A stretch of 64,000 nt of DNA, from IMG/VR virus record IMGVR_UViG_3300045988_124546; one strand, 5' to 3'. This DNA is from a virus. The notes under the pieces are model-generated. The model worked only from the letters and a program-made list of their open reading frames with translations. It did not search any database and was not told the origin of the DNA. Below are positions 7,401 to 51,735 of this stretch, piece by piece. Every line of letters starts with the position of its first letter. Position 1 is the first letter of the stretch. Both the position numbers and the translations under genes were made by a program.

Positions 7401-7547
7401 TACTTCTTTGTAAAATACGTGAAGGAGGCTGTTCAAGAGCGTCTTGATCAGATGAGAGATCCGTATATGAGAGGAATAAATATCATGCCTAACATGAATG
7501 ACAAGTTTAGTAAGTTGAACGATTTTTTGCAAAAAATTTATGGCTGA
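4488..7547 (+). CDS. Large virion/cargo-type protein (1019 aa), GTG start overlapping upstream stop
   Basis: Long ORF, translationally coupled on both sides (TAGTG at 4486-4490; ATGGCTGA at 7540-7547). Confidence 0.8.
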   Translation: MASQYSILRQYAPYVSPYNIDLVKDVMMYKQQKVDAAREKIYTQVDYLMGQEIDKPEARAYMEDKMSGVIANINQKFKGVDLSSDGVTRAIQGEISSVLDDTVINAIAGTKEGKRVMKEIESIKQNHPELYSPINEWHALDPYYKWRSDGKAGSRLGGLHYSPYVDYTKEINKLVSDFRKNNEGKKIQTTEYDVKGNPTGGIIEVNVDELTDSQIRNFVSANLSENMRNQMRIEASYMAATNPVFSNPDLVSQYIGSYVERYDRHIGALEAKKKSVGDNKDIIDRIDSQIQEAKNQKAEAKREADMIIASSDPVAAANFVVTNNLFDKMTDAWRYDNTSFERKKDDLYFARLAEDRAQQKFLTDNAKSMVEISLANEQLAQAKIETEYMRTYGSKMGTESSSGGTRGTGGVGVPMAPMDGPTAINSGTGKIGSVNLANIPYEQLTSSSTERRANLLKLYNSLSPTDRSNIVEASYEEEKTDPGLYANMTPEERIYSYLKNNGGQKNGYFGQGNNRLSEAYDALLLSDSKANGAAKAINNITDYQIDNIVTEKNKDIIRKVRNAKFMKGNSFINLTDTDDKAGAFLLATAITTGVSDAVGFREYMMDPSRGIDILSAISPSLGAKASAGKLGKNISDAITSENNGSSTGTLALINGMKKLNGDPDFNISDYMTIDKDGDIDLKDYQEGEPLTITQLRYAEKNSRVSDMIAGQMQDEIKMSVSPDQISDKLSQYHYLDSYKRYNWNADSPEKSLQKAQFRRLSGYMAGKVNNLDPTAINAINMDAEIDNGTVRRFLTAQVGSGKKSYVTERVEITNDELLKAGIDPSVEERNYPVDGYKSSFGTCDFVDTGKKEGYSYDKYLIRNGLPRLASKADVKNDLYDIVKVHGSYLKPEEMNVVKTLVDNFIDMSDNISVQLEGMDDRGSREVAVNFYDKRTKNSKNPALLFSDFVPLDPGNDEYADYWNNIHQKCPQYFFVKYVKEAVQERLDQMRDPYMRGINIMPNMNDKFSKLNDFLQKIYG

Positions 7548-10500
7548 TAATAACATAGATAGATATAATCCTGCTGCTAAAACCACTTACGAAGATGTGG
7601 CAAGGCAAAGGAAATTAGCTGAAGAAGAAAATTACACTCCGGCTACATTACCAGAGACGACAACGCCTCTGGTTCCTAATTATATGCCTGGTGAAGGTGT
7701 GTATGCCCAACCTAAATTTCCAGATTATGCATCAAGGATAGCTGCTGCCGAATACGAAGAGCCGTATATAGCCAAGGAAATAAGCAATAGCTACTCGGAG
7801 GCACTGGCCCGTAACAGCTACAGGGGGGCTACACCTGCACCGCCTCCTCTTAATCCTTATGGACCAAAGGTAAGTATCCGTGAAAGTCATCAGATGGGTA
7901 ATGATGGGGTATGGCGTACAAAATATCCCAACTATATTCCGGGTATAAATAATGAGGATTATTATGCCAGAAGACAGAGCGGATGGAGTAAGTTTTGGAA
8001 TGGTGTAGGCAAATTCGCTTTAAAGTCCGCATTGTACGGTGCTCAAGGAGTTGTGTCATTGCCTGACAAACTTATCAATATGGCATCTGAGGGAAGTTAC
8101 AAAGCTGCGTTAAACACTAACATGGATAAGTTTGTAGGTGATCTTGACCAGCAAATAGACATGCTTCTTCCCCATTATTACAAGAAAGAGGTAGAAGATT
8201 ATAATTTTGGTCAGAAGCTTTTTAAGGATACCGGTAATTTCTTGTGGAATGACGTCCTTGGTAATGGTATGTCTTTTACCGTAGGAGCCATGATATCAGC
8301 GTACATGACCGGAGGACTTGGAGTTGGATCATTGGGTAATATAGGCGCTAAATTAGGTGGAAGAATCGGAGCTAAGTTAGCAGCAAGGCAAGCTGCCAAT
8401 AGGGGCATAGGAAGCCTTAAAAGCGTGTTTAACGACTATGTAAGAAAAGGAGTTGCTACCGGAAGAAATGTAGGGGAGGCGGCTAAGACCATGACGTTGT
8501 TGGCTACCAGTGCCGGATTCGAGTCATCGGTTGAAGCAAATTCTTTTATGAAGCAATCTGAGTCTGATTTCAAGGATTATTATCGTAAGATTTATGGTCG
8601 TGATCCCAATGCAGAGGAAATGGCTGTTTTTCGTAATTTTAATGCTGATGTAGGTAGTGCTATATTTGCCGCCAATATGGGTATAGTAGGATTATCTAAC
8701 TGGCTTCTTTTTGGTAAGTATATAGGGTTAGGAGGCAAGGCTATACCAGGGTTGGAAAAGAAGCTCAACAAGCATTTATTTGGATTAGGGACGGAAGTTG
8801 CGAAGCCGGGAGAGATGGCTATTAAAATAACCAATCCCAATATAGGACAAAAGATAGCAGGCAATGTTTTCAATATCATGAAAAGGCCGGTGTCCGAAGG
8901 CTTATGGGAAGAAGGATCTCAAGGTGCTGTTCAGAATACGGCTGAGGAATATGTTAAGTCAAGATATGATAATGTAGCCATGAACGGAGCCGTTGATGTT
9001 CTTGATGCTATTTCTGAAGGATTTAAAAAGCAATATACGTCTAAAGAAGGATGGACTGAAATAGGAATCGGTGCTATTATCGGTTCTTTGTTTGGTATGA
9101 GGGAAGGCTTCTTTGGGGTTAAAGAGTATAGCAATAGTCAGATCTTGCTGGAAAGGCAAGTGAATGAATACAACAAAGCATCTTCTAATCTTAACACGGC
9201 GGCTTTGAATACGTTGAAAAAATCAATGAGTTTAGGGCCTCAAGTTCGTTCCGATGCCCAGTCTATGACTGGCAAGGAGCTTGATGATGCTATGTTTGAA
9301 AAGATGTCTATTGACAACCAAATGGGAACCTTAGAGGATTCGGCTGAAAATTTTAGGCAGATGATTGATATGATGCCTATTTCGGAAATAGCCGAAGCTA
9401 ATGGAATGTCTTTGGAAGAGGCAAAGAAATACAAGGATTCTATTATTGATAATTATAACAATCGTCTTTCTGATTTCAGATCTGCCCAGAGTTTTGCCGA
9501 AGATCTTATAGGTGATGACTCTAAGATCGAATTTAGAAAATACGTAGCTCGTAATGCCTTCCTTGGCCTTCAATCAGAATCAAGGATGAAAGACATAGCT
9601 TCTGTCATAGAAACGCTTTCGGGGCAGCCTCGCGTGGCGGATGCTCTAAGTACGTTCTCCCGGCTGTCGGACAGGGCAAGGGAGCGGGCGATGGCTATCC
9701 GTGGCATACGGTCAAGAATAGAAGAACTTGAATCCGAAATAGAAGATCTTGCTACCCGCCCTCGCAACGTAGAAGGGAAAGATCCACAAGCTGAATCCAT
9801 ACAACGAAAAACCAAAGAATTGGAAAGCCTTAGAACCAATTACAATAATTCGTTGTCTGAGTTATCAACGTTAATAGGAAAAGAGTTTTCGATAGAAGAG
9901 CTGGTAAGTAAAACCGAATCTGTTTTATCATCTCCTCTTTCTCCCATAAGTTCACAAGATGTGATAGAAGCCTATGATACGCTTGTGGCTTTTGATGATT
10001 ATTTTAATGTAAAATCAAGACAGGAAAAGAAGTTTACAGCCAAAGACAAAGCCATGAGATCCTTGGTAAATGAATACCGAAGAAGTTTGATGGACTATAG
10101 GAATATGAATAACTTCTTGTCTAAGATGCTTGATAAAAGATTCTTAGCTGAGGAAAACAGGGGGTTTTCAAAAGCGCTGTCTTCTCTATGGTCTACTCCT
10201 TATAAAGGGGATGACAAGGTTCCTGATTTTGCAGAGTCTAATAAAGTTGGTGAATATGACACTGATGAGGTAGTAGATCAAGCTGTGTCAGAAGGTAAGA
10301 TTTCGGAAGACGAAGCTTGGACTATCAAGGCTTTTATGCATGCTCTTGATAAAGTAAGGGAAGATAGGATGAAGGAAGCAGAAGATGATATAAAAGAGTC
10401 ACCGCTTACGGAGTCTGTATCGGATGAAGATTATGAGGCTGCTATGGATAATCCTATTATGGTTCCGGCCGTAAGGCAGTCTATAATTGATAAACTATAT

Positions 10501-13500
10501 ACAGGTAATGCCGATCTTCTTACTGAGAGAGAAAAAGATGTGTATGATAAATACAAACAAGATTTTGATGATTATGTATCGTCTTTGGGTGACAGTCCCG
10601 TTAATCTCATAAAATCATTATCTGAAAAGGCTGATAGGCTTACAAGTCCGAGATCTGTGTATGAGGATAATAAAGCTATTATTGATATGGCTAAATCCAA
10701 TTTGGAACCAGATCAAAGGAAGGAACTTGATGATGCTATTTCTTCGTATGTTGATATAATGAACAGACGGGACAAAGGGGAGAAAGTTGACGAAGATAAG
10801 CTTGCCGATTCGGTATTTACCATAGAAGATCTTGGCCAGGTTGGAAACATCACGGATCTCCTTCCTTATATCGAACAAAACAGGATTATTGATAAAGGTC
10901 GTATTTCCGAATCTACGTTAAGTAATTTTGGGGAGGATGATGCTAATATAGATTCTCTTGTAAATGAATTAGACGAATCTGATAATACGCCGGGAGCCAA
11001 TATAGATAGCGCCCAGAATCCAGAGACGTTGATGGTAAGAAGAATCTCCAATGACGGCAATGAAAGGTATGAAATTGCAGGTCTTAGAGCCGATAAATTT
11101 ATATCTTCTATAAAATCATTGGTTCCTATTCAAATAAGCTCTGAAACGAACGCTAATGGCACTAAAAGGTATTCTCTTAATATAGGTGGAGAAACGGCTA
11201 CTATAATTGAATTGCCTTATCATGCGAGATGGTCTATAGACAAAGAATCGGCTCGTGTTCTTAACCGTTACACAGACGTGTCTATTCAGGACGTGGGTAA
11301 TTCCTATTCTTTGGTTTATAAGCGTCTTGATTCAGATGAGTTGGTTCCGTACAGAACAGGTGTTGGATTCGGAGAGAATGAGGTAGATAAAATAGATCAG
11401 GAAGCATTATCTTCTTTGAAAAAAGGAGATAAGGTTAATCTCGAAATAGATGTAAATGATACCTATAATCAGTCTCTTTTTGCCGAATACAATGATGCTG
11501 TTCAGTCCGGCGATAAAAAAAGAATAGAATCTGCTGAGAATAAACTGGTGTCCAATATGGTTATCAAGGTCATGAGTGGGAACCGATTCGTTTCTGTTGT
11601 AAAAGCTGATACAGGAGGCATAGATGGTATAAGTAAAATAAGAAGAACGGCTTTCAACAAGTGGAAGAAGGATGCCGGCCGGTCGGCTACCATCGGCGTC
11701 GGCACGCATGTTGTTGCCCAGACCCTTCCCGGAAGACCGGTGTTTAACATGAAGGTGAACGGTCAAGGATATGGCCAGGTAGAAAATCTCCCCATTACCG
11801 AAAAAGGTGCTGAAAAAATATCTGATGTAGGATATGTATTAAATGGCAAAGTCGTGCTTAAGAACGGCTCTAAATACACAGGATTCCCATTTGCTTATTC
11901 TATATTAAATGACAAGGGGAATAATTACAAAAATGTAAGAGTTCCGGTAGTTGTTATCAAGGGTAAAAACGGTCTTAATTATCTTTTCCCGGTTAGTCTA
12001 CGTTCTGTGGAATCAGAGGAAGGAAAGAAATGGATTTCTTTTATAGATATGCTGCTTGAATCCGGTGACTCTGAATTGTTACAGATGGGTCAAGATGACA
12101 TACAAGATCTTAATGCGTATCTAACCAAGTTAGGTCTTGATCCAGCTTCGTATCAAGTATCGTATTTGAATCCTATTTCAGGGCTTAGAAAAGCTCGTGA
12201 GGCTATAGAAAAATTATCTACAGTTCCTGATGTTGTTAAGTGGGTAGAAGATGAAAGTAGGAGTGTGAAAGACATTGTGACGTCTGAGGTAGAATCTGGA
12301 ATAGATTTCGAAGGTGAGATGTTTGTTGCTCCTAAGATCAGGATTCAGTTTGGTAAATCATCTTCCAGACCTAAATCACTTATAGAAGATGATCTCCCTT
12401 TCTCCGATGAGGGTAAGACCGTTACTTCCAAGGAAGATGTGGATATTTACGAAGATGAAATGCCAGAGGAAGACCCTGTCCGGGGGACTCGGCCGGCGCC
12501 ACCAGCCCAGCCGGCTCCTGCGGCACAAGCTACGCAGTCCTTACATGGCAAGAAGCGCACCTCCAGAAAAAACTTCTCTCTTATGTTAAACGAAATAGAA
12601 TCTCATATAGAAAAAGAAGGGTTGCCGCCTTATGCTAATATTTTTGATTTTATAGCAAGGAAGATTGTAGGAGGTGATTTGAGATTTCTTCGTGAGAGAG
12701 GTAATCCTAAAAGTCTTAAGGAGGAAATGGGATTAGAACCTAAAGGAACAGTAGGTGATAAAATATCCACTCCTTCTAAAAAGGGAGGTAAGACCTTAGA
12801 AGAATATGTTTCTTGGCTTTGTTCTCAAACGGATCAGGTGGTGGTTGATTATGTTGGTCCAAGATCTGACGAACAAATTATATCAGAGTTGAAAAACTTT
12901 TTGAAATATATTAATTTTGTTCCAAGCAAGGCTTTGAATTATTCTCTTAGAGTCAATGGCATGGATGCCCTAAAAGAATATGGCACAAAAGAGGAAGTAG
13001 AAAAAATGGAATCTGACATCAATAGTTTGGTTTCTGAAGTTTTGCCTACGGTAGATAATCAAACTGTAGAAGATGTTTCTACTGCAATAGAATTAAATAA
13101 CTTGCCTGCCATATGGAGACCTATGGAAAGCCTTGATATGACAAACGAGGAAAAAATAGAGTTTTTGAATAACGTAGCAGATTTCCTTAGCGGCATTCCA
13201 GAGTATGATGCTGTTGTGGAGTCTATAGAGTCAGAATCAGATAATATTTTAAATGATGGAAAAGAAGGAAGTGCAGAAGGCGGTGCAGTACGCGCTGAGG
13301 AAGATGGCGATAAAAAGGGAGATGGAAAAAGAGAAGGACAACCCAGAGATGATGGCAAAGCTGAGGGAGATGTCTATTTACCTGGATCTGAAGAAGGAAG
13401 AGTAGATAACTATAAGAAGAACGGAGATAAGTTCTCTGATATTGCCGAAGTTACTTTATGGTTACTTAGAAGGGCTGCCGGCATAACCTCTATCCCGGAA

Positions 13501-14181
13501 GGAGAAGAGGTTTATGTAGAGGGGGATGAAGTTAATAGCATTATGACCGATATGGAATCAAGGTACGGGATAGACACCATCAACCACTCGCATACGACTA
13601 AGGCTATAAGGGCTCTTAACGGCGTATCAGGTTATAAAGTAGAATACGGCTTAACCTTTTTAACATACGATCCTTTTATTAGAATATCCAATCCAAGGAA
13701 AGAATCTAAGGCCGAGAAAGACGAACCTCATATATCCGAAGAACCGCTTACTCACATATCAAGGGTAACAACCCCTTATTTCCTGTACGGCGGTGATGAA
13801 GCATATACATCTGTTCCGGCTAAGGTAGAACCTATACCGGAGAAGATAATGGGTCGTAATGGCATTAAATTTGGTATGAGTGTAGTCGAGTTAACCAAAT
13901 TAGGGTACAAAAAAGCTGGTGGAAACTGGATATATAAATTCTATATGAACTCAGGTGTGTATGATTTGTATAATATCAGTACCGGTGAAGCGTTTAGGGT
14001 AAAACCGGATCTTGGAGTTAAGATAAGTTCCAGTGCATTCATCCGCTCTTTATCTCAATCTGGTAGAAAAATACAAAATATGATGAGTAATATGAGCCAG
14101 GAAGAGATAGATAGAAATAAGAATCTCGTAGAAGGTTCTGATAATTCGGATTCGATAAATGAGTTAAATAAAGAGTGTTGA
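7540..14181 (+). CDS. Giant protein (2213 aa) typical of the Crassvirales virion cargo / tail-associated module; contains a Pro/Ala-rich linker and an acidic Gly/Glu/Lys-rich low-complexity segment
   Basis: 6.6-kb uninterrupted ORF. GC-rich island around 12470-12545 encodes RPAPPAQPAPAAQATQ. Low complexity EGSAEGGAVRAEEDGDKKGDGKREGQPRDDGKAEGD near 13270-13380. Confidence 0.85.
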   Translation: MADNNIDRYNPAAKTTYEDVARQRKLAEEENYTPATLPETTTPLVPNYMPGEGVYAQPKFPDYASRIAAAEYEEPYIAKEISNSYSEALARNSYRGATPAPPPLNPYGPKVSIRESHQMGNDGVWRTKYPNYIPGINNEDYYARRQSGWSKFWNGVGKFALKSALYGAQGVVSLPDKLINMASEGSYKAALNTNMDKFVGDLDQQIDMLLPHYYKKEVEDYNFGQKLFKDTGNFLWNDVLGNGMSFTVGAMISAYMTGGLGVGSLGNIGAKLGGRIGAKLAARQAANRGIGSLKSVFNDYVRKGVATGRNVGEAAKTMTLLATSAGFESSVEANSFMKQSESDFKDYYRKIYGRDPNAEEMAVFRNFNADVGSAIFAANMGIVGLSNWLLFGKYIGLGGKAIPGLEKKLNKHLFGLGTEVAKPGEMAIKITNPNIGQKIAGNVFNIMKRPVSEGLWEEGSQGAVQNTAEEYVKSRYDNVAMNGAVDVLDAISEGFKKQYTSKEGWTEIGIGAIIGSLFGMREGFFGVKEYSNSQILLERQVNEYNKASSNLNTAALNTLKKSMSLGPQVRSDAQSMTGKELDDAMFEKMSIDNQMGTLEDSAENFRQMIDMMPISEIAEANGMSLEEAKKYKDSIIDNYNNRLSDFRSAQSFAEDLIGDDSKIEFRKYVARNAFLGLQSESRMKDIASVIETLSGQPRVADALSTFSRLSDRARERAMAIRGIRSRIEELESEIEDLATRPRNVEGKDPQAESIQRKTKELESLRTNYNNSLSELSTLIGKEFSIEELVSKTESVLSSPLSPISSQDVIEAYDTLVAFDDYFNVKSRQEKKFTAKDKAMRSLVNEYRRSLMDYRNMNNFLSKMLDKRFLAEENRGFSKALSSLWSTPYKGDDKVPDFAESNKVGEYDTDEVVDQAVSEGKISEDEAWTIKAFMHALDKVREDRMKEAEDDIKESPLTESVSDEDYEAAMDNPIMVPAVRQSIIDKLYTGNADLLTEREKDVYDKYKQDFDDYVSSLGDSPVNLIKSLSEKADRLTSPRSVYEDNKAIIDMAKSNLEPDQRKELDDAISSYVDIMNRRDKGEKVDEDKLADSVFTIEDLGQVGNITDLLPYIEQNRIIDKGRISESTLSNFGEDDANIDSLVNELDESDNTPGANIDSAQNPETLMVRRISNDGNERYEIAGLRADKFISSIKSLVPIQISSETNANGTKRYSLNIGGETATIIELPYHARWSIDKESARVLNRYTDVSIQDVGNSYSLVYKRLDSDELVPYRTGVGFGENEVDKIDQEALSSLKKGDKVNLEIDVNDTYNQSLFAEYNDAVQSGDKKRIESAENKLVSNMVIKVMSGNRFVSVVKADTGGIDGISKIRRTAFNKWKKDAGRSATIGVGTHVVAQTLPGRPVFNMKVNGQGYGQVENLPITEKGAEKISDVGYVLNGKVVLKNGSKYTGFPFAYSILNDKGNNYKNVRVPVVVIKGKNGLNYLFPVSLRSVESEEGKKWISFIDMLLESGDSELLQMGQDDIQDLNAYLTKLGLDPASYQVSYLNPISGLRKAREAIEKLSTVPDVVKWVEDESRSVKDIVTSEVESGIDFEGEMFVAPKIRIQFGKSSSRPKSLIEDDLPFSDEGKTVTSKEDVDIYEDEMPEEDPVRGTRPAPPAQPAPAAQATQSLHGKKRTSRKNFSLMLNEIESHIEKEGLPPYANIFDFIARKIVGGDLRFLRERGNPKSLKEEMGLEPKGTVGDKISTPSKKGGKTLEEYVSWLCSQTDQVVVDYVGPRSDEQIISELKNFLKYINFVPSKALNYSLRVNGMDALKEYGTKEEVEKMESDINSLVSEVLPTVDNQTVEDVSTAIELNNLPAIWRPMESLDMTNEEKIEFLNNVADFLSGIPEYDAVVESIESESDNILNDGKEGSAEGGAVRAEEDGDKKGDGKREGQPRDDGKAEGDVYLPGSEEGRVDNYKKNGDKFSDIAEVTLWLLRRAAGITSIPEGEEVYVEGDEVNSIMTDMESRYGIDTINHSHTTKAIRALNGVSGYKVEYGLTFLTYDPFIRISNPRKESKAEKDEPHISEEPLTHISRVTTPYFLYGGDEAYTSVPAKVEPIPEKIMGRNGIKFGMSVVELTKLGYKKAGGNWIYKFYMNSGVYDLYNISTGEAFRVKPDLGVKISSSAFIRSLSQSGRKIQNMMSNMSQEEIDRNKNLVEGSDNSDSINELNKEC

Positions 14182-21403: not shown

Positions 21404-21603
21404 AAACACTACTTTTAAATGTACCTGTATTTTCCGGTAAGATTATTTCTCCTATATGGATTAAGGCCGTAAGAGATTTTCAATCCAAATCCAAGTCAGA
21501 AAGAGACCTGTATTGTTCGATCTGTGGATGTGCAGGAGGGTGTAACTTGTGTAATAATATAAGTAAGTATAGGATTTCAGAACAATTAAAATATTACAAA
21601 TAA
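21373..21603 (+). CDS. Hypothetical Cys-containing small protein (76 aa)
   Basis: ORF overlapping neighbours by a few nt. Confidence 0.4.
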   Translation: MLYECFAKIMKTLLLNVPVFSGKIISPIWIKAVRDFQSKSKSERDLYCSICGCAGGCNLCNNISKYRISEQLKYYK

Positions 21604-21881
21604 TGGAATTAAAAGATTTTAAAGATGTAATTAGAATGATGACAAAAGAAGAGTTCGAATCAACAATTGAAGAAGATATTAAATTCGTTGAAGGATTCAA
21701 GTATTTCTTAAGACATGATGATGCTACAAGGATAGTGGAACACATCAAGTCCGTGTTAGAAGCATCAGTGGACTACTATTATCCTAATCATCCTAAACCT
21801 GAAGCAGAACCAGGAGACATGGGAGAAGTTTCTGATGGATACCACACTTTCAATATCCGAAATAACATTAAAACAATATAA
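21603..21881 (+). CDS. Hypothetical protein (92 aa)
   Basis: ORF. Last gene before the IscB element. Confidence 0.5.
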   Translation: MELKDFKDVIRMMTKEEFESTIEEDIKFVEGFKYFLRHDDATRIVEHIKSVLEASVDYYYPNHPKPEAEPGDMGEVSDGYHTFNIRNNIKTI

Positions 21882-21884
21882 TTT

Positions 21885-22140
21885 CATTATAAGGTTTTAA
21901 TGTACCAGAAATGGTCCGGATATTAGCCTAAGCCTTGAAACGAAGGCTACGTTATTTGAGAATATATAGTTACCTACGGATGTTTACCCAAGTCTGTAGC
22001 TCTAAGGCAAGCGATTAAACAGGAGTAGTGTATTTGCGAAACAGTGTTGCTTGCATCAAAACCTCTTATAACATTGGCGATGGGTACTAACAGGATGAAA
22101 TATTCCTGACTTATGTTGAATAAACATTGAAAACGTTTGT
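21885..22140 (+). ncRNA. Candidate omega RNA (guide RNA scaffold) of the downstream IscB nuclease
   Basis: ~245-nt region with no ORF directly 5' of, and overlapping, the iscB start, which is where IscB omega RNAs are encoded. Contains stem-loops, e.g. agcctt-gaaacg-aaggct (21931-21948) and gcaagc...gcttgc (around 22005-22050). Confidence 0.45.
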
Positions 22141-23365
22141 AGATATGGTGTACGTACAGGATATAAATGGTAAACCTATGATGCCTACAACAAGGCATGG
22201 AAAGGTTAGGAGACTGCTTAAAGAAAACAAGGCAGTTGTTGTAAACCTATGTCCGTTTACCATCAAATTAATGTACGTAACATCCGATTACAAACAAGAA
22301 ATTGTGTTAGGCGTTGATGCTGGAGCTAAACATGTTGGTTTATCAGCAACGACGAAAAGCAAAGAGCTTTACAGCAGTGAAGTTATTCTTAGAAATGATA
22401 TCGTAGATCTTTTATCTACAAGAAGAGAGTCAAGAAGGGTGAGGAGGAATAGATTGAGATATAGAAAACCTCGTTTTGACAACAGGGTAAAAAGCAAGCG
22501 TCCAGGATGGGTAGCACCTTCGGTGAAGTACAAAATAGACGCCCATATTCGTGTTATTGACAATGTATGTTCTATATTACCAATATCTCGTATTGTTATT
22601 GAAGTAGCTCAATTTGATACTCAGAAGATTAACAATCCTGAAATATCAGGTAAAGAATATCAGGAAGGAGATCAACTTGGTTTTTGGAACACAAGGGAGT
22701 ATGTTTTAGCAAGGGATGGGCATAAATGTCAGTATTGTAAAGGAAAATCGAAATCCAAAATCCTTAATGTTCATCACATTGAATCCCGAAAAACGGGAGG
22801 TGATTCCCCTTCTAATCTTATTACCTTATGTGAAACTTGTCACAAAGAATACCATAAAGGTAATATAGATTTGAAGATCAAACGGGGATCGTCGCTTCGC
22901 GACGCGGCCGTAATGGGAATTATGAAATGGAGGTTGTATGAAGAGTTAAAATCCAGATACGACAGAGTTTTTATGACGTTTGGTTACATTACGAAACATA
23001 ATCGGATTAAATACGGGATTGAAAAATCCCATACATCCGACGCGTTTGTCATTTCTATGAACATTAATGCGAAACGAATCGAACGTCAATATTTAAAACG
23101 TTTAATTCGTAGACATAATAGACAAATACATAAAATGAAAATTTTAAAAGGAGGAAAGAAGAAAAACAATCAAGCTCCTTTTGAGGTTTTCGGATTTAGA
23201 TTGTTTGATAAAGTGTTGTATAACAATAAAATATTCTTTGTTTATGGAAGGAGAAAATCAGGGAATTTCAATATCAGGGATTTCAACGGAGAAAACCCGA
23301 AGGATGTTTCACGCAAAAAGTTTAAACTCATTAGAGGTAAGAGGCATCCGATTATATTAAAGTAA
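22127..23365 (+). CDS. iscB: IscB-family RNA-guided nuclease (OMEGA system; PLMP domain, RuvC-I, Arg-rich bridge helix, RuvC-II, HNH, RuvC-III, C-terminal TI-like domain); 412 aa, possible alternative start at 22145
   Basis: Motifs read from translation: NGKPMMPTTRHGKVRRLLKENKAVVV...PFTIKL (PLMP); LGVDAGAKHVGLS (RuvC-I, D64); TRRESRRVRRNRLRYRKPRFDNRVKSKRPGW (bridge helix); IVIEVAQFD (RuvC-II, E159); CQYC...NVHHIE...NLITLCETCH (HNH with CxxC...CxxC); SHTSDAFVIS (RuvC-III, H302/D305); GFRLFDKVLYNNKIFFVYGRRKSGNFNIRDFNG (C-terminal domain). Confidence 0.85.
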   Translation: MKTFVDMVYVQDINGKPMMPTTRHGKVRRLLKENKAVVVNLCPFTIKLMYVTSDYKQEIVLGVDAGAKHVGLSATTKSKELYSSEVILRNDIVDLLSTRRESRRVRRNRLRYRKPRFDNRVKSKRPGWVAPSVKYKIDAHIRVIDNVCSILPISRIVIEVAQFDTQKINNPEISGKEYQEGDQLGFWNTREYVLARDGHKCQYCKGKSKSKILNVHHIESRKTGGDSPSNLITLCETCHKEYHKGNIDLKIKRGSSLRDAAVMGIMKWRLYEELKSRYDRVFMTFGYITKHNRIKYGIEKSHTSDAFVISMNINAKRIERQYLKRLIRRHNRQIHKMKILKGGKKKNNQAPFEVFGFRLFDKVLYNNKIFFVYGRRKSGNFNIRDFNGENPKDVSRKKFKLIRGKRHPIILK

Positions 23366-23402
23366 ATGAACGGATTTAATAAATTTAATAGAAAAACGTA
23401 TC

Positions 23403-23708
23403 ATGTATAATAAAGAAATCGTGATATGCGCGGCCATCTGGGTACAGGATGACAAGAAACGTCCCTATCAGCCCACCAATATACCATCCGGCACCGTGTT
23501 CTGTGGATTGAGACACCCCTCTATACTATCTCAACTTGCGGCATACGGTATAGCCCATAAGAACCGTAGTGTTCAAGGATTTTTGTCAAGCAAGAATCGG
23601 TTTCTAACAAGAGAGGAAGCATCTGAACTTGTTAAGAGCAATAATCAGGAAATGGTAGTAGATAGGAGTGCCATTAGAGAACAATTGTATTCAGAAGATC
23701 TATATTAA
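23403..23708 (+). CDS. Hypothetical protein (101 aa)
   Basis: ORF immediately downstream of iscB. Confidence 0.5.
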   Translation: MYNKEIVICAAIWVQDDKKRPYQPTNIPSGTVFCGLRHPSILSQLAAYGIAHKNRSVQGFLSSKNRFLTREEASELVKSNNQEMVVDRSAIREQLYSEDLY

Positions 23709-25077: not shown

Positions 25078-28000
25078 ATGACATCAACGTGTATTATTAA
25101 AAGAGATAATAAAAAGAAAGTTGTTTCTGTCTCTACCAGATCAGGGGACAGGTCTATGTTGTTTGATAAAATAGCATCTATTCCTCTTATGGAGAACAGA
25201 GAACGGGCTACTACTGTTTTTAAAACCGTATTTTCTAATAAGTTCTTAAAGGCTTTTGGCGACTGGAGAAAGAGAGTGCCTATCAACAAACCGGCTTATA
25301 ATAAGGTAAAATCCAACATCGATCTTATTCCGGAAGCCTATAGAGAAAGGGTGCTGGATAAGGCTTCTAAGATGAGTAATCCTGTTCTTGTGTCAAAATC
25401 AGATGCACCTTATGAAATCCAAGAATCAGGCTTTGGATTCTATAGCCAAGATCTGGGTGATAATATTATGTTGGTGGATGCTATGGTCCCGTCAAGTATT
25501 TCCGTACCGGAAGGACCGGGAATAGACGCCGGGCAGTATCTACAAGATACCATATCTTCGGACTTCACTCCCGTATCTATGGTACAGGATAAGGGTGTTA
25601 ATTATATGGTTATAAAAGACGGTCTTAAGATATTTAGCCCAGAGGAGTTACCAGAGACAGATTCTAATCCTGTGGGTGTAACGTATCAGACCGGAGAGCC
25701 TCGTTTGTTTTTCATGAACGATCGTAGTCAATTATTTGAAGATTACGGAGAAGCTCTTCGCTCTGACGGGAATGATATTAGAATAGGATTCTTATCCGGC
25801 ACCGTTCAAGAATCTGCCTGGGATGGCGTGGCAGACATTACTTACAAGGCTGGAAAGTATGTCCTTAACAACCCCAAATCTTTTATACCTGTCATGACCG
25901 CCTCTGCTTCCACTTCTTTATCAACAAAAGGTGGAATAATAAACTACCTTATAAAGAAAGGTCTTTTGTCAGGATCTAAGATATTCGATTCGGAAACAAG
26001 AAGCTATTATCTTACAGGAGAAGGTCATACAGGACAAATTAGACTTTTCAATTCAGCCTTATCCTACACCGAGCTCCGTAATCATTTTGGTTCCGATGTT
26101 TCCATGAACGACCAAGGTATGATAACCATAAGCTCGTTGGATAACAGTAAGGTAACTATGAGACTCGCCACCGGGGGAATGGAAAGGGTTAGCAAAGAGC
26201 AGATAAAGAACGATCTTAAGTCAGGAAGATACAATGAATTGGATGCTAAGTACGATCATTTTGATGCGCTTGTAGTTTCATTCATATTAGAAGACAACGA
26301 TCTTTATGCTGATACTAAAGCTAAGATCGTATCAGATTATAGCAGGCAGGAACGTGATCAACGAAATTCTATTGTCGAGATACTGAAAACTCTTGGCGTT
26401 AGTGTCATAGGTATGACCGACTATATAGAGAAGTACCAAACCAAATACGGGCATGAACCTTCTGCTAAGGCATTGGCGGATATTGCCAATAACGTAATAG
26501 CAGTTGGTGAAGATGCTACTTTATCTGATTTAGTAGAAGAAACAGCCCACTTCCTTGTAGAGGCATACAGAGATCAGAATGTTGTTGAATCTGTTTTGCA
26601 AGATGTAGAAGGCACTGAAGAATGGAATCAGTATGCAGGTCAGTATTATAATACATACGGTAAGGTATATGAAGGAGCTGAGCTTGATAATGCTGTTAGG
26701 AGAGAAATTTTTGGAAAGATCCTCGCCAGGGAGATGCAGACCGGCACAGCACAGGCGCCGGTAGAGCCCACCTCCTTCCTGGGGCGCGTCCGGCAGCTTC
26801 TCTCTGGAATCGTAAGCTGGCTTAAATCAGCTTTATCAACCCAAAGACAAGATTTGAATAACGTTATTAAAAGCATTCGTGATCTTGCCATTACTGACAT
26901 AGATAAAGGATTTGACACCTCTCTGTTAAAGGATAATGACTTTACATTATACTCCCTTTCTTCTATGAACAAGAACAAGTTTCTTGAGTCTAAGATCCGG
27001 GCATTGAGAAAAACCTTAAGAGACTTGCGTCAGATAAGCTCTGATAGGGCTGTAACTACGTCTATGACCCTTGCTCAGCTTAAGACTATAGAAGATAAGA
27101 TAAATAAGGTAGAGACCGAAATAGACAAGAATGAGATGGCGGCTGCCATGAATAGCATGATCTCTACAGCCGAAGCTCAGGTCAGATACTTAAGCAATGT
27201 GGTGAACACCATCCTTCATGGTGATACCAAAGATGGTAAGCTTCACTTCAATACCAATGATCGAAAGAACGTAGATATTATCAACAATCAGGTTCTTCCG
27301 ATCATGAACGATCTTCGAGGATATATCCGTAACAGAAGTACCGAATTTGATGAACGTGAAAAGCAGGATTATACAAATAGGATTAATACCGTCATTGCCG
27401 ACATTAATGGTATTCAGTCTGATATTAAATCAGTACAAGACCTTGATGAAAGCACGTTGCTTGATAAGTTAATGAACGAACTTCATGTGCCGGCAGATAA
27501 GGTAAAGAGAGTAAAAGAATTTTTTGACAAAGTTCAACATGATGTCTCTTGGATAAGTAGGTGGTTCGGTATATTAGAGCATTCTTCCAGTCCGTTCAAT
27601 AACGCTCTTGGAGCTATGATTGCCAAAGACAATTACAATGCGATGGTGAATGCTCAGCCCGCCATATCCGACTTCCTGGCATATGCTAAAAAGCATGGTT
27701 TTAACAAATCTGAATTTGAAAAACTGCTTCAGAAAGTAGATGGCAAAACTTCTAATTACCTTCGCAGTGCTCTTGATATGGCTAAATACGATCGTAATAA
27801 GAAACTGGCACAGATGCGTGCGTTTGCGGCTGCCATGAACATAGAAATATCAGAAGAAGAAATCAATGATGTGGTTGACAATAATCGTAATTACGTATTT
27901 AAAAGAGAAGTAGTTGACAAGGACGGAAATACGGTTACTGAAAACGCTAAATTTAAGCCCTCATCTGACAGGGTTAATACCGATATTTTTACCATCGAGC

Positions 28001-31000
28001 AGGAAAAGATCTATACGGAGCAGATGGAAAAGTGGGATGCTGAAAATTCAGAATTGGAATTTAGTGAAAGTTACGCCACAAGAATGGAATCCATATACAA
28101 AAAGGCTGAAGAAGAATTAGGACATCCGGTTTCTCAAACAACCAAAGAATACCTTAATGCCTTATCCCGGCAAAAACGGATATTGAGGCAGCCTTTTATT
28201 GATAGCGGTGGTAATTTTGATGAGGTTGCCTACTATAAGAGTAGTAACTACGAAGAAGAAGGACTGCTTCGTAAACAACGTAAGGAAGCAGCTTCGGAAT
28301 ACATATATGTAGGGACCAGACGTGTTGAAAAAACCGGCGACCAACTTAAGATGGCCAAAGAAATACAAGCCATAAATGAAGTTTGGAGAAAAGAATCAAA
28401 TAATGCCACTAATTCCGTATCAGAATCGTTTTTGCAAAAATTAAGAACGATTCAGAACGAGTCAGGAGGAGAAGCTGCGTTGAAGGCACTTATGTTGGGA
28501 GGTCACCTGTCATTTAATGATCGGTTTTGGAATGATGTAGAATCGGAACAGTCGGCACGTACCGAATCAAATAACAAGGCTTCGTATCTTAAAATGGCGC
28601 ATGATATCATTAGTTCTACGACAAGTGATAGAGATGCGACTGACGTGGACTCGATTGTAAAAGATATAGAAAAAAATAAGGCCATTATCAAGGAAATAAT
28701 CGGAAACAATCGCGATGTGGCTGATATCGGAGAAATTAACGAAGCGACATTTACCTCATCTGAAAGAGATGCTTTTAGGGCCGCATCTGAAGCTATTGAA
28801 GCCGATTACGCTATCTTAATAGATTATGCTAAGATGGTGGGTCTTGAAGATATTGATAAGTACCTTACTAAAAGCAGTAAGGCTGAAAACGAAGTAAATC
28901 AGTCTTATTTAAATGCTCTTGCTGACTCCAAGGAAGTGGAATGGAAGTTCGTACAACGTCATACTACGGCGAAGAAAGCAAAAAGGATTCAGGCTTTAAG
29001 GGATAAGCTGTTTAAGGCTGCTGATAACCGATATCTGTTTACCGTATCTGAAACCAACTACCTGTCAGAAAAGCTTGGTATAAGCAAAGAATTAGACGGT
29101 AGAGATTTCAGGAATGCTGTTAATGCTAAGATGGCCAGCTTATTTTTAAATAATACAAGAGAAGAGGGTATAGAAGCTGACATAAAAGCGGGCATAGAAG
29201 AAGCTAATGCTATTGTTAATGAATTTGCCAGGAGCCAGGTTTTTTCGTACTATAAACGCATGGCGCCTACCGGATATGCGGCCATGATCGACAAAATCGG
29301 TCGAGGTGAGATAGATGTGGCGCAGATGGTTAAGGACGTACAAAACGGTACATCCACCCAAGATTATGGCATGGACATATCGTACCTTTCTTTCGACCCT
29401 GCAAGGGCATGGGTGGCTGAATCTGAAGCCGAAAATAGCGGCCGTAATCCTGATTATGTAAAAGATCATGGGTATGGTCATCGCATGCCTAAGAAAAGCC
29501 TGTATCGTGACGAATCGTATTTCAATGACTTTGGTATCAAGTATGATGCTGACGGTAATGAAGTTGCTACTAAAAACGTAGATCAGTGGAATATGATTCA
29601 AAAACTCAAGGAAATAAAAAGACAATCACTTGATCTATACAAAGAGCAGAGCCCGAACCTGTATGCTATTCCACAGATATCAAAACAAGATATAGAACGT
29701 ATAGAAGGATTGGGTATTAACTTCAAAAATACGGTTCGTAATTTTGTATCAGATCTGTGCCTGGACAGAGTAGACGATTCTTTATACGGTAAAACCAGAC
29801 AAGGGGAAGTATATGATCCGGAAGACAGACTTAGGTCTATACCCAAATACTACATATATGAATTGGAGAACCAAGATGATGTATCTCACGATTTTGGCTA
29901 CTCTTATTCTATGCTTATGATGCGGTCATCGTTATATAACGAAAAGCAGAAGTCTATAGAGCTTGCCCAAGGACTGGAGCAGATGTTACTGAATAAACAA
30001 TTTGAAGGCGGTAAGAAGGCTGAAGCAACCCAAGCGTATCAGATGTTCAGGGACTTCTTCAACGATCATTATTATGGCATTAGGATGAACACCAAAAAAC
30101 TTACGGTGAACATCGGAGGATATACGGTAGACCTTACAAGAATTATGATGGCTGTTGAAAGATTTATGTCGGTCATGAACTTGGCACTGTCTCCGTTTGT
30201 GGCAGCTACCGGCGCCCTGACAGGTCATATCAACCTCATCATGGAATCTGCCGTAGGACAGTATATAAGCAAAGACTCCCTTAAATACGCATCGGCTGAA
30301 TTTTCACGCCTTGCTCCATCTTGTATAGCAGAAACCGGAGACATAGATAGGAAAAGCAAATTATATGTCATAGGTGAGAGAATGGGGATATTCAATATCC
30401 GAAATCGTATGTATGGTGCCGGATACAATAGAGTGGCCAGGACCTTAATGCGTTCACCTATGTATGCTTTTATGGAAATCCTGAACTACCCTCTTAATCC
30501 GCAGGTTATGATTGCTACTATGGACAATGTTCGTTATTACAAAGGCCGGTTCTACACGTTCCAAGATTTCAAGATGGAAAAAGAACGCAATAAAGAACAG
30601 AGTACCATAAAAAGAGAATGGAATGCATTAAAAGATCGTACTTTATGGAGTATGGTAGATGTCGTGGATGGGAAGGTGGTTGTAAAGCCCGGATCAGGTG
30701 TTACTGTTGAGGAAGTTGAAACCCAGATGGCTATAACCAGGAATCAAGTCCGTAGCTTGTCGCAGATATGTAACGGATCTTTGAATGAAGAAAATCGAAC
30801 TGCCGCATCGCGCAACTGGATAGCCAGGTTCATGACCGCCCACCGAGGATGGTTGGTGCTGGCGGCTCAACGCCTGTGGAAAAGACGTGGCTTCAATTTC
30901 CAAACAATGCAAGAAGAGGAAGGGTTGTCAATTACGTTAAAGAATATGATAGCCAAAACATTTAGCTTAGCTTCCGAGTCTGGTATGAAAAACATCATAG

Positions 31001-31524
31001 ATGCCTGGAACGAAAATAAAGATAATATGAATGAGGTAGAGAAAACCAATATAAAACGTCTCAGTGTCTATGCCGGCACGTTCCTTATCATGCAAGCCGT
31101 ATCCATGCTTCTTGCCGGATGGCGTGATGATGATGAAAACGAAGAAAGTTGGCTTACTCAATTTGGATCCTATGTCGGATTCAGAACCATAAACGAAATA
31201 GCTTCACAGATGCCGTTTATTATGGAGCTTAACGTTGTAGATATCATTAACGACCCGTTTGTCATGGGGCGGAAGTTGAAGGATCTTACTGATCTTAGGA
31301 ATTACTCACTTGATAAAGTAACATCCGGCACATACAAAGGAGAGTTTAAGTTATTTAGGCAACTCGCCAAACAGACGTTTATCAAACAATGGTATAACAT
31401 CAAGACGCCGGAAGACATAGCGCGCGCCTATAATTGGTGGCAGCAGACAAACAACAAGTCAATGATGTTCTTCATCGGCGCCACTCCTGATTCGGAAGGA
31501 GACGATGATGTTAGTTACAAATAG
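25078..31524 (+). CDS. Giant protein (2148 aa), Crassvirales-type virion/ejected cargo protein; coiled-coil-rich middle region
   Basis: 6.4-kb uninterrupted ORF with own promoter-like box and downstream terminator. No DxDGD RNAP motif found by eye. Confidence 0.85.
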   Translation: MTSTCIIKRDNKKKVVSVSTRSGDRSMLFDKIASIPLMENRERATTVFKTVFSNKFLKAFGDWRKRVPINKPAYNKVKSNIDLIPEAYRERVLDKASKMSNPVLVSKSDAPYEIQESGFGFYSQDLGDNIMLVDAMVPSSISVPEGPGIDAGQYLQDTISSDFTPVSMVQDKGVNYMVIKDGLKIFSPEELPETDSNPVGVTYQTGEPRLFFMNDRSQLFEDYGEALRSDGNDIRIGFLSGTVQESAWDGVADITYKAGKYVLNNPKSFIPVMTASASTSLSTKGGIINYLIKKGLLSGSKIFDSETRSYYLTGEGHTGQIRLFNSALSYTELRNHFGSDVSMNDQGMITISSLDNSKVTMRLATGGMERVSKEQIKNDLKSGRYNELDAKYDHFDALVVSFILEDNDLYADTKAKIVSDYSRQERDQRNSIVEILKTLGVSVIGMTDYIEKYQTKYGHEPSAKALADIANNVIAVGEDATLSDLVEETAHFLVEAYRDQNVVESVLQDVEGTEEWNQYAGQYYNTYGKVYEGAELDNAVRREIFGKILAREMQTGTAQAPVEPTSFLGRVRQLLSGIVSWLKSALSTQRQDLNNVIKSIRDLAITDIDKGFDTSLLKDNDFTLYSLSSMNKNKFLESKIRALRKTLRDLRQISSDRAVTTSMTLAQLKTIEDKINKVETEIDKNEMAAAMNSMISTAEAQVRYLSNVVNTILHGDTKDGKLHFNTNDRKNVDIINNQVLPIMNDLRGYIRNRSTEFDEREKQDYTNRINTVIADINGIQSDIKSVQDLDESTLLDKLMNELHVPADKVKRVKEFFDKVQHDVSWISRWFGILEHSSSPFNNALGAMIAKDNYNAMVNAQPAISDFLAYAKKHGFNKSEFEKLLQKVDGKTSNYLRSALDMAKYDRNKKLAQMRAFAAAMNIEISEEEINDVVDNNRNYVFKREVVDKDGNTVTENAKFKPSSDRVNTDIFTIEQEKIYTEQMEKWDAENSELEFSESYATRMESIYKKAEEELGHPVSQTTKEYLNALSRQKRILRQPFIDSGGNFDEVAYYKSSNYEEEGLLRKQRKEAASEYIYVGTRRVEKTGDQLKMAKEIQAINEVWRKESNNATNSVSESFLQKLRTIQNESGGEAALKALMLGGHLSFNDRFWNDVESEQSARTESNNKASYLKMAHDIISSTTSDRDATDVDSIVKDIEKNKAIIKEIIGNNRDVADIGEINEATFTSSERDAFRAASEAIEADYAILIDYAKMVGLEDIDKYLTKSSKAENEVNQSYLNALADSKEVEWKFVQRHTTAKKAKRIQALRDKLFKAADNRYLFTVSETNYLSEKLGISKELDGRDFRNAVNAKMASLFLNNTREEGIEADIKAGIEEANAIVNEFARSQVFSYYKRMAPTGYAAMIDKIGRGEIDVAQMVKDVQNGTSTQDYGMDISYLSFDPARAWVAESEAENSGRNPDYVKDHGYGHRMPKKSLYRDESYFNDFGIKYDADGNEVATKNVDQWNMIQKLKEIKRQSLDLYKEQSPNLYAIPQISKQDIERIEGLGINFKNTVRNFVSDLCLDRVDDSLYGKTRQGEVYDPEDRLRSIPKYYIYELENQDDVSHDFGYSYSMLMMRSSLYNEKQKSIELAQGLEQMLLNKQFEGGKKAEATQAYQMFRDFFNDHYYGIRMNTKKLTVNIGGYTVDLTRIMMAVERFMSVMNLALSPFVAATGALTGHINLIMESAVGQYISKDSLKYASAEFSRLAPSCIAETGDIDRKSKLYVIGERMGIFNIRNRMYGAGYNRVARTLMRSPMYAFMEILNYPLNPQVMIATMDNVRYYKGRFYTFQDFKMEKERNKEQSTIKREWNALKDRTLWSMVDVVDGKVVVKPGSGVTVEEVETQMAITRNQVRSLSQICNGSLNEENRTAASRNWIARFMTAHRGWLVLAAQRLWKRRGFNFQTMQEEEGLSITLKNMIAKTFSLASESGMKNIIDAWNENKDNMNEVEKTNIKRLSVYAGTFLIMQAVSMLLAGWRDDDENEESWLTQFGSYVGFRTINEIASQMPFIMELNVVDIINDPFVMGRKLKDLTDLRNYSLDKVTSGTYKGEFKLFRQLAKQTFIKQWYNIKTPEDIARAYNWWQQTNNKSMMFFIGATPDSEGDDDVSYK

Positions 31525-39566: not shown

Positions 39567-39917
39567 TTATTTTATATCAGTAATTAAAACATATCTTTTA
39601 ACAATGTCTTCAAGACTCACAGAAGAACGTATATATAGTTTTTCTTCGTACTCATATAGAGCGTACCCTTCTTTTATGTCTAATATCTTAATCACATGCT
39701 TGCCTCTTTCAAATGGATCCTCAAAGTAGCTCTTATGTTCGTATCTTTGACCTACTTTGATTTTGTCAGTTTTCTTCTTCATCTTATAACGATCTACTGC
39801 TCTACCTGTTTTTATGAAAGCTGTCGTGAGTAAGTATAATAAAACTAAATACAAAAGGATCGCTACTCCACATATTAGATCTTCTTTCATTACACTCCTT
39901 TTAAATAGTTGAACCAT
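39567..39917 (-). CDS. Hypothetical protein with N-terminal TM helix (116 aa)
   Basis: Hydrophobic segment ICGVAILLYLVLLYLLTTAFI. Confidence 0.5.
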   Translation of the reverse strand: MVQLFKRSVMKEDLICGVAILLYLVLLYLLTTAFIKTGRAVDRYKMKKKTDKIKVGQRYEHKSYFEDPFERGKHVIKILDIKEGYALYEYEEKLYIRSSVSLEDIVKRYVLITDIK

Positions 39918-40056
39918 ATATCCTCCAGCTTCTCCTGAAGCTCAAACGCTTTCTTGAAATTCCCGCATCTTACAGCAACATCTCTCATGTATTCTACGTT
40001 TATAACTTCCGGATCTTGCCGGTATTTTGTTCTTAACTTTTGAACATCCTCGTATT

Positions 40057-41076
40057 TCATCGTTTTATCTTTTTAGACGGATCCCAATCCGAAGAGAAAG
40101 GGCATTCGTTTTTGTTATGTAATCCAAAGTCACAATAATAACACAGTGCTGACGGGCAGGGCAGCCTGTTTTGCGGAACAGGCTGACTTAGGGTGGCGCG
40201 CCGCTTGCTATACCTGGCTCCTTCTGCTCCCTGGATGTACGCTTGAAATGATTTTACACTATTATCTTCAAAATCATACATTTTAGATAAAGTGTCATTT
40301 AGCATCTCTATAGATTTTGTTTTACGTTCCTCATCCACTTTAACCTTTTGGTATTGTCTGGTCCTGGTAAAGAAATAGATGTTCATATCTGGCAGAACTC
40401 CACCATATTTTCTATAGATGTAAAACGAATATATAGGATGCTGTAAATTCGTTTCCAACTTCTTAGAATCAAAAACCTTATTACCTGATTTCCAATCTAT
40501 GACATAATGGTGAACTACGTTCTTGCTCTTTATAGCCAGATGAAGATCTACCGATCCTACTATGTACACATGTGTATGAACGTCACCATTTATATCAACA
40601 GGCTTAGGAAGACGGTACGGCAGCACAAAATCTTCTTCGACTCCAACTATGGCGCCGTGTCTGATAAGTTTCTCGCAGGGATTAAGATCACTATCAGCTA
40701 TCATAAACCTATTCCCGTCTTTTTTGAACAGATCCACAATCCAAGCAAGAAGTTCCCCAGATTGCTTCATGGCTATCATCATATTTTCCGGTGATTGCCA
40801 AGGTATGTCCTCCTGGTAAGCATAGTAACTTATTGCTTCTCCAAGGTCTTTACCAGAAGGCTGTCTTCCGTTCTTAAAGAAGTATTCCAGTGTCTTATGG
40901 ATAACCGTACCATAGGATGTAGCTTCTTGTTTTTCCGTAGACCTTTTGCCCTCCACGTAAGTCTTATACCATTTCATTGGACAGGTAAGAAACGTATCTA
41001 TCTGGGAATAAGATATGGCAAGACGTTTTACACCATTAAACTCCTTATATAGCAAATGCGTTTCCGGGACCATCAT
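40057..41076 (-). CDS. Cas4-like PD-(D/E)XK exonuclease with 4Fe-4S-type Cys cluster
   Basis: N-terminal TCPMKWY motif, central VIDWKSGNK (D-x-K), C-terminal CPSALCYYCDFGLHNKNECPF cysteine cluster, as in Cas4/RecB-family nucleases. Confidence 0.6.
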   Translation of the reverse strand: MMVPETHLLYKEFNGVKRLAISYSQIDTFLTCPMKWYKTYVEGKRSTEKQEATSYGTVIHKTLEYFFKNGRQPSGKDLGEAISYYAYQEDIPWQSPENMMIAMKQSGELLAWIVDLFKKDGNRFMIADSDLNPCEKLIRHGAIVGVEEDFVLPYRLPKPVDINGDVHTHVYIVGSVDLHLAIKSKNVVHHYVIDWKSGNKVFDSKKLETNLQHPIYSFYIYRKYGGVLPDMNIYFFTRTRQYQKVKVDEERKTKSIEMLNDTLSKMYDFEDNSVKSFQAYIQGAEGARYSKRRATLSQPVPQNRLPCPSALCYYCDFGLHNKNECPFSSDWDPSKKIKR

Positions 41077-51264: not shown

Positions 51265-51724
51265 TCTTCTTCTCGCCTAATTTTTCAGCTCCCTTCTGAA
51301 GATCGTATTTGAATACGTCAATGATCTTCGTTTCAGCAATAGCTTCGCAATTCCAGTCTCCTAACGTGCCCTGCATACCTTTAGTTAACACAGCCTCAGC
51401 GTCTTTCGGATTGCCGGCCTGGACATACATATAGCATGGCGTTTTCTTTTCTTTACCTTTCTTTTCATCCAGTGTAATGTAATTCACCTTACACTTATAC
51501 CAGTACTCAGCTTCTCCGTTGAAGAAGATTTCCGACACTTTAATAGGATTTATTTTAATAATGTCGAACACTTGAAATAAATCCTTGAAAATCTCTAAAG
51601 ATCTTGATTCTGCCTCTGTATAAGACAAGGCATCTACCAAATACTTTTCAGTTACTTTCTTTTTTTTGCCGTTCTCGATATTATCAATCTCGGCTTTTAC
51701 CGTAATTTCAAACCAGCGATTCAT
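51254..51724 (-). CDS. Hypothetical protein (156 aa)
   Basis: ORF. Confidence 0.55.
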   Translation of the reverse strand: MNRWFEITVKAEIDNIENGKKKKVTEKYLVDALSYTEAESRSLEIFKDLFQVFDIIKINPIKVSEIFFNGEAEYWYKCKVNYITLDEKKGKEKKTPCYMYVQAGNPKDAEAVLTKGMQGTLGDWNCEAIAETKIIDVFKYDLQKGAEKLGEKKSEE

Positions 51725-51735
51725 TGTATTAATAT

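Follow-up and report, generated by a model that had tools for sequence, protein, structure and literature searches.

HEARO, held in Rfam as RF02033, is the RNA that is now named IscB omega RNA (Weinberg 2010; Altae-Tran 2021; Goltsman 2022, PMC9755519), and HEARO nucleases have been noted earlier in viral genomes (Goltsman et al. 2022, PMC9755519). In Geobacillus stearothermophilus, the IscB element is IS605-like and non-autonomous, carries the omega RNA at its right end and derives its guide from the flanking DNA; the HEARO region is bounded by the transposon RE, the TAM of GstIscB is TTCAT and lies 5' of the LE, IscB elements show a same-orientation bias with the upstream gene, and the RF02033 model does not contain the downstream structural elements (Meers et al. 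2023, 10.1101/2023.03.14.532601). For OgeuIscB, a nuclease of 496 aa that has been solved with its omega RNA (PDB 7UTN, 7XHT), the TAM is given as NWRRNA, and the candidate motif at the present locus is led by ATG.

The locus described here lies in a 64,000-nt stretch of viral DNA, the whole of which is called the window below. From position 21853 to about 22114, it carries the scaffold of an IscB omega RNA (HEARO), by every test that could be applied, and we consider it very likely that this scaffold is the RNA end of a 1550-bp non-autonomous IscB element that spreads by RNA-guided cutting. As a member of a family that is already curated, the RNA is a textbook case; the population pattern is of more interest. 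Since hundreds of closely related phage genomes have the element, at many sites, the ends of the element, its guide and its candidate TAM can be read from natural variation. The coordinates of the features are collected in Table 1.

Table 1 Features of the IscB locus and of a second insertion hotspot in the window
Feature	Coordinates	Strand	Basis or remark
Remnant of WDGH + Tad2-like gene	21603-21881	+	blastn and alignment to csAssE-Sib (OR575929.1)
Predicted guide, GGATACCACACTTTCA	21837-21852	+	immediately 5' of first scaffold helix, outside element boundary
Whole non-autonomous IscB element, 1550 bp	21853-23402	+	csAssE-Sib comparison, junctions, simple-insertion rule
First scaffold domain, three-way junction	21853-21923	+	Rfam alignment, MFE folds, compensatory closing helix
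Closing helix of first domain, 7 bp	ATATCCG 21853-21859 with CGGATAT 21917-21923	+	
Long hairpin within first domain	21865-21903	+	
Short hairpin within first domain	21904-21915	+	
Core HEARO helices	21924-22091	+	Rfam RF02033 and pair counts on 51 scaffolds
Individual core helices	21931-21935/21944-21948, 21951-21961/22062-22072, 21974-21981/21992-21999, 22007-22015/22046-22054		enclosing helix 21926-21930/22074-22078
3' hairpin, CAGGA...TCCTG	22091-22108	+	outside Rfam model; helix 10 in pair counts
iscB leader, near-invariant	22115-22144	+	conservation profile; missing from solo omega-RNA copies, which diverge after 22114
iscB, 406 aa, intact	22145-23365	+	Pfam RRXRR + HNH, homology to IscB in PDB, dN/dS, motifs
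Element tail, ATGAACGGATTTAATAAATTTAATAGAAAAACGTATC	23366-23402	+	transposon left end (IS convention); conserved across insertion sites
ATG abutting element, candidate TAM/target motif	23403-23405	+	start codon of next phage gene (23403-23708)
Left junctions at second hotspot	51906, 51912, 51916, 51931, 51991, 51993	-	right junction, ATG of DUF4494 gene (51724)

A HEARO-type RNA directly upstream of an intact iscB gene

When the whole window was scanned against Rfam, only one match exceeded a curated threshold, namely HEARO RF02033 at 21853-22091 on the + strand, which spans model positions 1-211 of 211 and scores 99.3 bits (gathering score 83; E 3.4e-19). A second HEARO was not found in the 64-kb window even at E<=1. 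This full-length match lies directly upstream of a real iscB gene on the same strand, as in the known family, and it upholds the original prediction, which had called the stretch a candidate IscB omega RNA from the letters alone and had named a covariance-model search as a check. Further, the 314-nt region has a fold z-score of -3.2, and none of 100 shuffles was as stable. Of 16 bacterial relatives (protein identity 47-69%), 12 have a HEARO upstream of iscB, and so does every viral subfamily tested. A purely cis-regulatory leader was considered and rejected, given that the RNA matches this family and that the function of the family is known.

The stretch had also been described as free of any ORF of 60 aa or more. 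This holds for the + strand, on which the next long ORF has a TTG start at 22127 and its first ATG at 22145, but not for the - strand, where a 74-aa ORF occupies 21974-22198. We take the latter to be spurious because it runs antisense across the conserved scaffold.

The product of the iscB gene shows the features of an IscB nuclease, that is, a PLMP domain, a split RuvC with bridge helix, an inserted HNH, and conserved catalytic residues. Pfam detected RRXRR over its full length (1.4e-59) plus HNH, and the homology to the solved chains 7UTN/7XHT (E ~1e-44) includes the PLMP N-terminus and extends over the RuvC, bridge-helix and HNH regions. The individual motifs are GKPMMP (PLMP) at residue 9, the RuvC residues D58, E153 and D299, the HNH residues H210/H211, and CxxC pairs at 195 and 229. 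Compared with nine relatives, dN/dS is 0.07-0.18, which indicates purifying selection. With 406 aa, the protein is shorter than OgeuIscB, and the locus offers a compact nuclease accompanied by a defined guide scaffold.

Shortened or disrupted iscB frames were seen in about 10% of the 79 related loci (among them L023, L049, L066 and L069), so that decay exists beside strong purifying selection on the others. One IscB encoded on a 20-kb contig of a Vibrio olivae assembly (L081, NZ_JBHMEP010000019.1) is 88% identical to the phage protein and has a HEARO upstream, and none of the other bacterial relatives exceeds 69% identity; this contig is probably a phage contig inside the bacterial assembly. 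Elsewhere in the window, there are two very large + strand ORFs (7540-14181, 2213 aa; 25078-31524, 2148 aa), of which the second corresponds to a csAssE-Sib protein annotated 'structural protein'.

Compensatory changes in the scaffold helices

A set of 343 relatives of the IscB protein was obtained from IMG/VR, and about 120 loci were read; the alignment work used 79 loci, mostly gut phage contigs of roughly 80-160 kb. From these, 51 distinct scaffolds were aligned, and the Rfam structure was mapped onto the alignment for pair counting. The results showed that 83% of the cells were paired, compared with 33-43% when the partners were slid, and that 170 cells over 18 pairs carried a double change versus 61 +/- 9 in shuffles, a number equalled in none of 500 shuffles. 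In helices 4, 7 and 8, pairing reached 99-100% and double changes were numerous. RNAalifold on the same 51 scaffolds recovered the core helices, with 10 pairs in which both sides had changed. The folding and covariation analysis that had been suggested as a further check therefore came out in favour of the RNA, with compensatory changes in its helices across the homologous loci. Both stems that the original prediction had named were confirmed and coincide with Rfam HEARO helices: agcctt/aaggct pairs 21931-21936 with 21943-21948, and the gcaagc...gcttgc pairing joins 22007-22015 to 22046-22054.

The locus shares the multi-helix architecture of HEARO but departs from the model at both ends. On the 3' side, a covarying hairpin lies beyond the model; it is 100% paired in the 51 scaffolds and occurs in GGA/TCC, GAG/CTC and GGG/CCC versions. 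On the 5' side, the first domain has a high AT content and longer hairpins and fits the model poorly, which is reflected in a low posterior probability in the Rfam alignment. RNAalifold missed the first helix, and a column-wise count found only 48% of it paired, because two subfamilies pair one column apart in register. Tested sequence by sequence, the helix is compensatory: ATATCCG/CGGATAT in the window is replaced elsewhere by ATAATCG/CGATTAT, ATAATCT/GGATTAT or ATAATTG/CGATTAT. The three-way junction is likewise preserved between the subfamilies despite their differing sequences. In subfamily 2, the Rfam start coordinate falls about 55 nt inside the element and is unreliable as its boundary. 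The long-range helix of the window's own scaffold (21951-21961/22062-22072) contains two T-T mismatches.

Boundaries of the scaffold and the predicted guide

The 5' edge of the scaffold was located by three lines of evidence. In csAssE-Sib (OR575929.1), the closest deposited phage, which lacks the element, homology to the window breaks off at 21854 and begins again immediately before the ATG at 23403. Conservation across 79 upstream regions rises from about 0.4 to above 0.9 between 21854 and 21855. Positions 21853-21854 are part of the first helix, and both bases covary with their partners. Taken together, the break in csAssE-Sib, the jump in conservation and the first helix put the scaffold start at 21853, give or take one or two bases, and, as in the HEARO family, this edge is also the element boundary. 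The scaffold therefore begins within what appears as a 92-aa gene, and not after the stop of that gene, as the original prediction had it. The same prediction had placed the guide at 21885-21905, which falls in the long hairpin of the first scaffold domain according to the Rfam alignment and the folds; the predicted guide lies about 40 bases further upstream, next to an RNA of an already known family.

About 36 different left flanks were found 5' of the scaffold in related loci, and 3 more on fresh loci. Guides in IscB systems are generally 16 nt long. With this length assumed, the predicted guide is the 16 nt that end at 21852 (GGATACCACACTTTCA); it would extend 5' to about 21829 if it had 24 nt, the length preferred by one HEARO nuclease (Goltsman et al. 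2022, PMC9755519). In the related phages whose loci were read, an intact copy of this 16-mer with ATGAAT directly after it occurs 13 times, 6 times exactly and 7 times with a single mismatch. A one-mismatch version (CATACT) is present in csAssE-Sib.

At the other end, two solo omega-RNA copies (L020 and L080) have sequence in common with the full element exactly as far as about 22114, which sets the 3' edge of the scaffold. Between the end of the scaffold and the iscB ATG there are 31-54 nt. An overlap of the RNA with the iscB start, which had been expected, is thus probably not the case, as the copies without iscB are alike only that far.

The 1550-bp element and its candidate target motif

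In every site class, the conserved tail that follows the iscB stop leads directly to an ATG, with which the next phage gene starts. Simple insertions were found in four site classes, where naive genomes have the left flank joined directly to the right flank with its leading ATG (38-40 of 40 bases); these elements measure 1514-1551 bp and have no target-site duplication. When the guide-matching flank was followed into naive genomes, the continuation was ATG for 16 of the 26 distinct left flanks that have a naive counterpart, against a background of 0.02 per position (binomial P ~6e-21), and the fourth position was A in 12 of these 16 cases. A separate scan for scaffold starts gave three new junctions, all led by ATGA. 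Where the site is occupied, the bases after the flank are ATAT or ATAA. In most of the non-ATG exceptions, the junction had been mis-anchored or an ATG-type parent had lost 4-25 nt. The junction anchors of L013, L014, L067/L075/L076 and L079 had been misplaced by the alignment and were excluded from the evidence, and the right-hand blast HSPs at the second hotspot began 35 nt too early in a first mapping, owing to the likeness between the element tail and the native sequence.

We regard ATG, usually ATGA, as a candidate TAM on the strength of these junctions, which could also reflect a preference in insertion site alone. The TTCAT of G. stearothermophilus, read in the sense of the omega RNA, is ATGAA 3' of the target, which equals the junction motif ATG(A) and matches the ATG(A/W) seen here. 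The two elements are alike in further respects, since each is non-autonomous and IS605-like, with the omega RNA at the right end, a flank-derived guide and the same orientation as the upstream gene. In contrast to the G. stearothermophilus element, the one described here is phage-borne, has many deletion-type alleles and shows neither a cognate TnpA (101 loci) nor a detectable left-end hairpin. Specifically, no HUH-type ORF is present in the window, and a tblastn search with a Pfam-verified probe found no Y1 TnpA in the window or within 4-5 kb of the 101 loci (960 kb; best E 0.8). In the iscB-distal tail, no hairpin was better than shuffles on either strand (z -0.4 to +1.2); the RNA end of the element is rich in hairpins, but these belong to the omega RNA. 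Judged from its sequence, the element appears to act like a non-autonomous IS605-type IscB element, although two hallmarks, the transposase and the iscB-distal hairpin, were not found.

The native sequence upstream of the target ATG resembles the tail of the element. In the flanks of L027/L024 and L012, ...TAACGCAAAAAGGAA before ATG stands beside ...TAACGCAAAAAAGGAA before ATG in the tail, and, in a second native flank, ...AAAAACGTATTAAA stands beside ...GAAAAACGTATC. This likeness may come from an upstream signal that both have for the gene downstream, or it may preserve a trace of the tail's origin.

Interruption of a WDGH/Tad2-like gene and its possible consequences

The ORF in front of the scaffold had been read as a preceding phage gene that ends at 21881. 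The stop is indeed there (21879-21881), but the gene is not intact: it is a truncated remnant of a gene that encodes 252 aa in csAssE-Sib, with Pfam WDGH at residues 75-177 and Tad2-like at residues 186-249. Positions 21603-21852 are phage DNA and hold the first 83 codons, codon 84 spans the junction, and the final 8 codons and the stop come from the element. No Pfam domain was found in the 92-aa remnant. The element has knocked out a phage gene of the anti-defence type (WDGH/Tad2-like). Relative to csAssE-Sib, about 778 bp of phage DNA has been replaced by the element, which means that the insertion in the window is not a simple one.

The following course of events, modelled on the established behaviour of IscB systems, would connect the RNA with this site. 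Read-through from the co-oriented gene remnant would make the RNA, and for that reason its 5' end would carry about 16 nt of flank (21837-21852). In related phages, IscB with this RNA would cut the intact WDGH/Tad2-like gene at GGATACCA(C/T)ACTTTCA+ATGAAT; the occupied locus would be spared, because the 16-mer is followed there by the ATAT of the first helix and not by ATG(A). In a co-infection, the break would be repaired from the element-bearing genome, and the element would be copied in. For the window's allele, the repair would also delete the ~778 bp, since homology on the right starts only at 23403; this ~0.78 kb would comprise the remainder of the Tad2-like gene and a small gene. Free-standing homing endonucleases of T4-like phages offer a parallel, as their genes lie between conserved phage genes with the cut site in a neighbouring gene, and the intervening DNA is replaced by co-conversion (intronless homing, marker exclusion). 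Unlike theirs, recognition here would be RNA-guided and would change with each new flank.

The same cutting could serve another end, and the RNA and nuclease might be mainly a weapon between phages, in which cleavage of the Tad2-like gene destroys or excludes co-infecting relatives and the element is not copied. The guide matches phage DNA only, some of the related phages that hold the 13 intact targets carry the element at junctions further right, and the exclusion of competitors by phage homing endonucleases is already established (review). However, one identical allele, with the same left and right junctions, is found in several distinct contigs, which fits copying, and flanks that are 87-96% identical between phages give ample homology for repair. 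Exclusion as the main role appears unlikely to us, and the two outcomes are not mutually exclusive. It is far less probable that the window's element is an inactive relic whose RNA no longer guides. Such a relic would agree with the two T-T mismatches in one scaffold helix and with the disrupted iscB frames in about 10% of the related copies, but the same version of that helix is present in many loci with intact genes, the Rfam score exceeds the gathering threshold, and the window's iscB is itself intact, with all catalytic motifs and the low dN/dS given above.

Nested junctions at the insertion hotspots

At the window's site, all loci share one right junction, the ATG at 23403 (csAssE-Sib 6502), and differ in the left one. 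In csAssE-Sib coordinates, the left junctions are 5199, 5250, 5414, 5723 (the window), 5846, 6106, 6139, 6188, 6222 and 6236; two further left junctions are small-deletion derivatives. The second hotspot, which is empty in the window (51724-51991, - strand), likewise has one right junction and six left junctions, and in about 20 related loci an IscB element takes the place of all or part of an 84-aa ORF (51990-51739) there. The roughly 45 loci at the two hotspots included no simple insertion. We found no description of such a nested pattern in the literature searched, which is no proof of its absence, and the literature searches for IscB in crAss-like phages gave only unrelated word matches.

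Copies of the element recombine with one another, as judged from mosaics at the window's hotspot: in L006 and L019, the omega RNA is of subfamily 2 but the iscB and the tail are of subfamily 1. The left junction at csAssE-Sib 5250 also occurs with two first-helix types, ATAATTG in L006 and ATATCCG in L021. Some contigs hold two IscB elements at different sites, sometimes of different subfamilies (3300045988_120989, with L013 and L057; _127883, with L020 and L073; _147128, with L012 and L077; _121141, with L062 and L080). The left junctions of L004, L007, L059, L063 and L073 show small deletions of 4-25 nt at or beside the guide position. Most of these end exactly at the scaffold start, and one retains a single base of the old flank; the naive target of the resulting guide is not followed by ATG, and 1-2 nt of microhomology are visible.

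One possible, if rather doubtful, interpretation is that the IscB element of these ~150-kb gut phages changes its own target, with no resident transposase involved. The RNA end would become joined to DNA further upstream, always just before an ATG, and each step would create a new guide and delete accessory genes, here the Tad2-like gene of the anti-defence type. An allele with a more upstream junction would still cut the alleles that retain its target and would itself have lost theirs, so that the alleles would form a one-way hierarchy of RNA-guided gene drives. If the nested junctions do reflect retargeting, the locus would be a natural system for studying the spread of IscB without a visible transposase. 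It also shows that mobile elements remove anti-defence-type accessory genes from phages.

The origin of the new left junctions can be accounted for in two ways, neither of which we hold more than tentatively. A Y1 TnpA acting in trans, from the host or from elsewhere in the phage, could join the RNA end to DNA directly beyond another CAT (ATG) of the same molecule and would give adjacent deletions anchored at the element end. The roughly dozen left junctions with one right junction at the window's site and the six at the second site would follow from this, as would the position of nearly all junctions exactly before an ATG in the naive sequence and the lack of simple insertions at either hotspot and of target-site duplications; the motif also equals a known TnpA/IscB TAM. 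On the contrary, no tnpA was present in the 960 kb examined, nor was an iscB-distal hairpin detected, and we know of no description of adjacent-deletion joining of this kind for IS200/IS605 transposases. Alternatively, recombination between copies at different ATG sites, or rare deletions, may make new joints with no transposase, and only those joints whose new guide precedes a TAM in naive phages could spread. The mosaic elements (including the junction with two helix types), the contigs with two copies and the 4-25 nt deletions beside the scaffold that do not end at an ATG are all in line with such a course; however, the parental simple insertions that it needs were not found among the ~45 hotspot loci, and the simple insertions at other sites still require an insertion mechanism.

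A third site is also empty in the window (39890-40061, - strand). In L020, a 56-aa ORF at this site (40060-39891) is exactly replaced, the exchange running from its own ATG up to that of the following gene.

Solo omega-RNA mini-elements without iscB were observed in two loci (L020, 1991-2346; L080, ~7450-7800), each within 2-4 kb of a full IscB element. They contain the full scaffold (HEARO 112.9 bits in L020), followed by about 60 nt with a GC-rich hairpin, GGAGACC...GGTCTCC, and then by a tail that resembles the one of the full element and borders on an ATG. Such copies could supply a second guide in trans.
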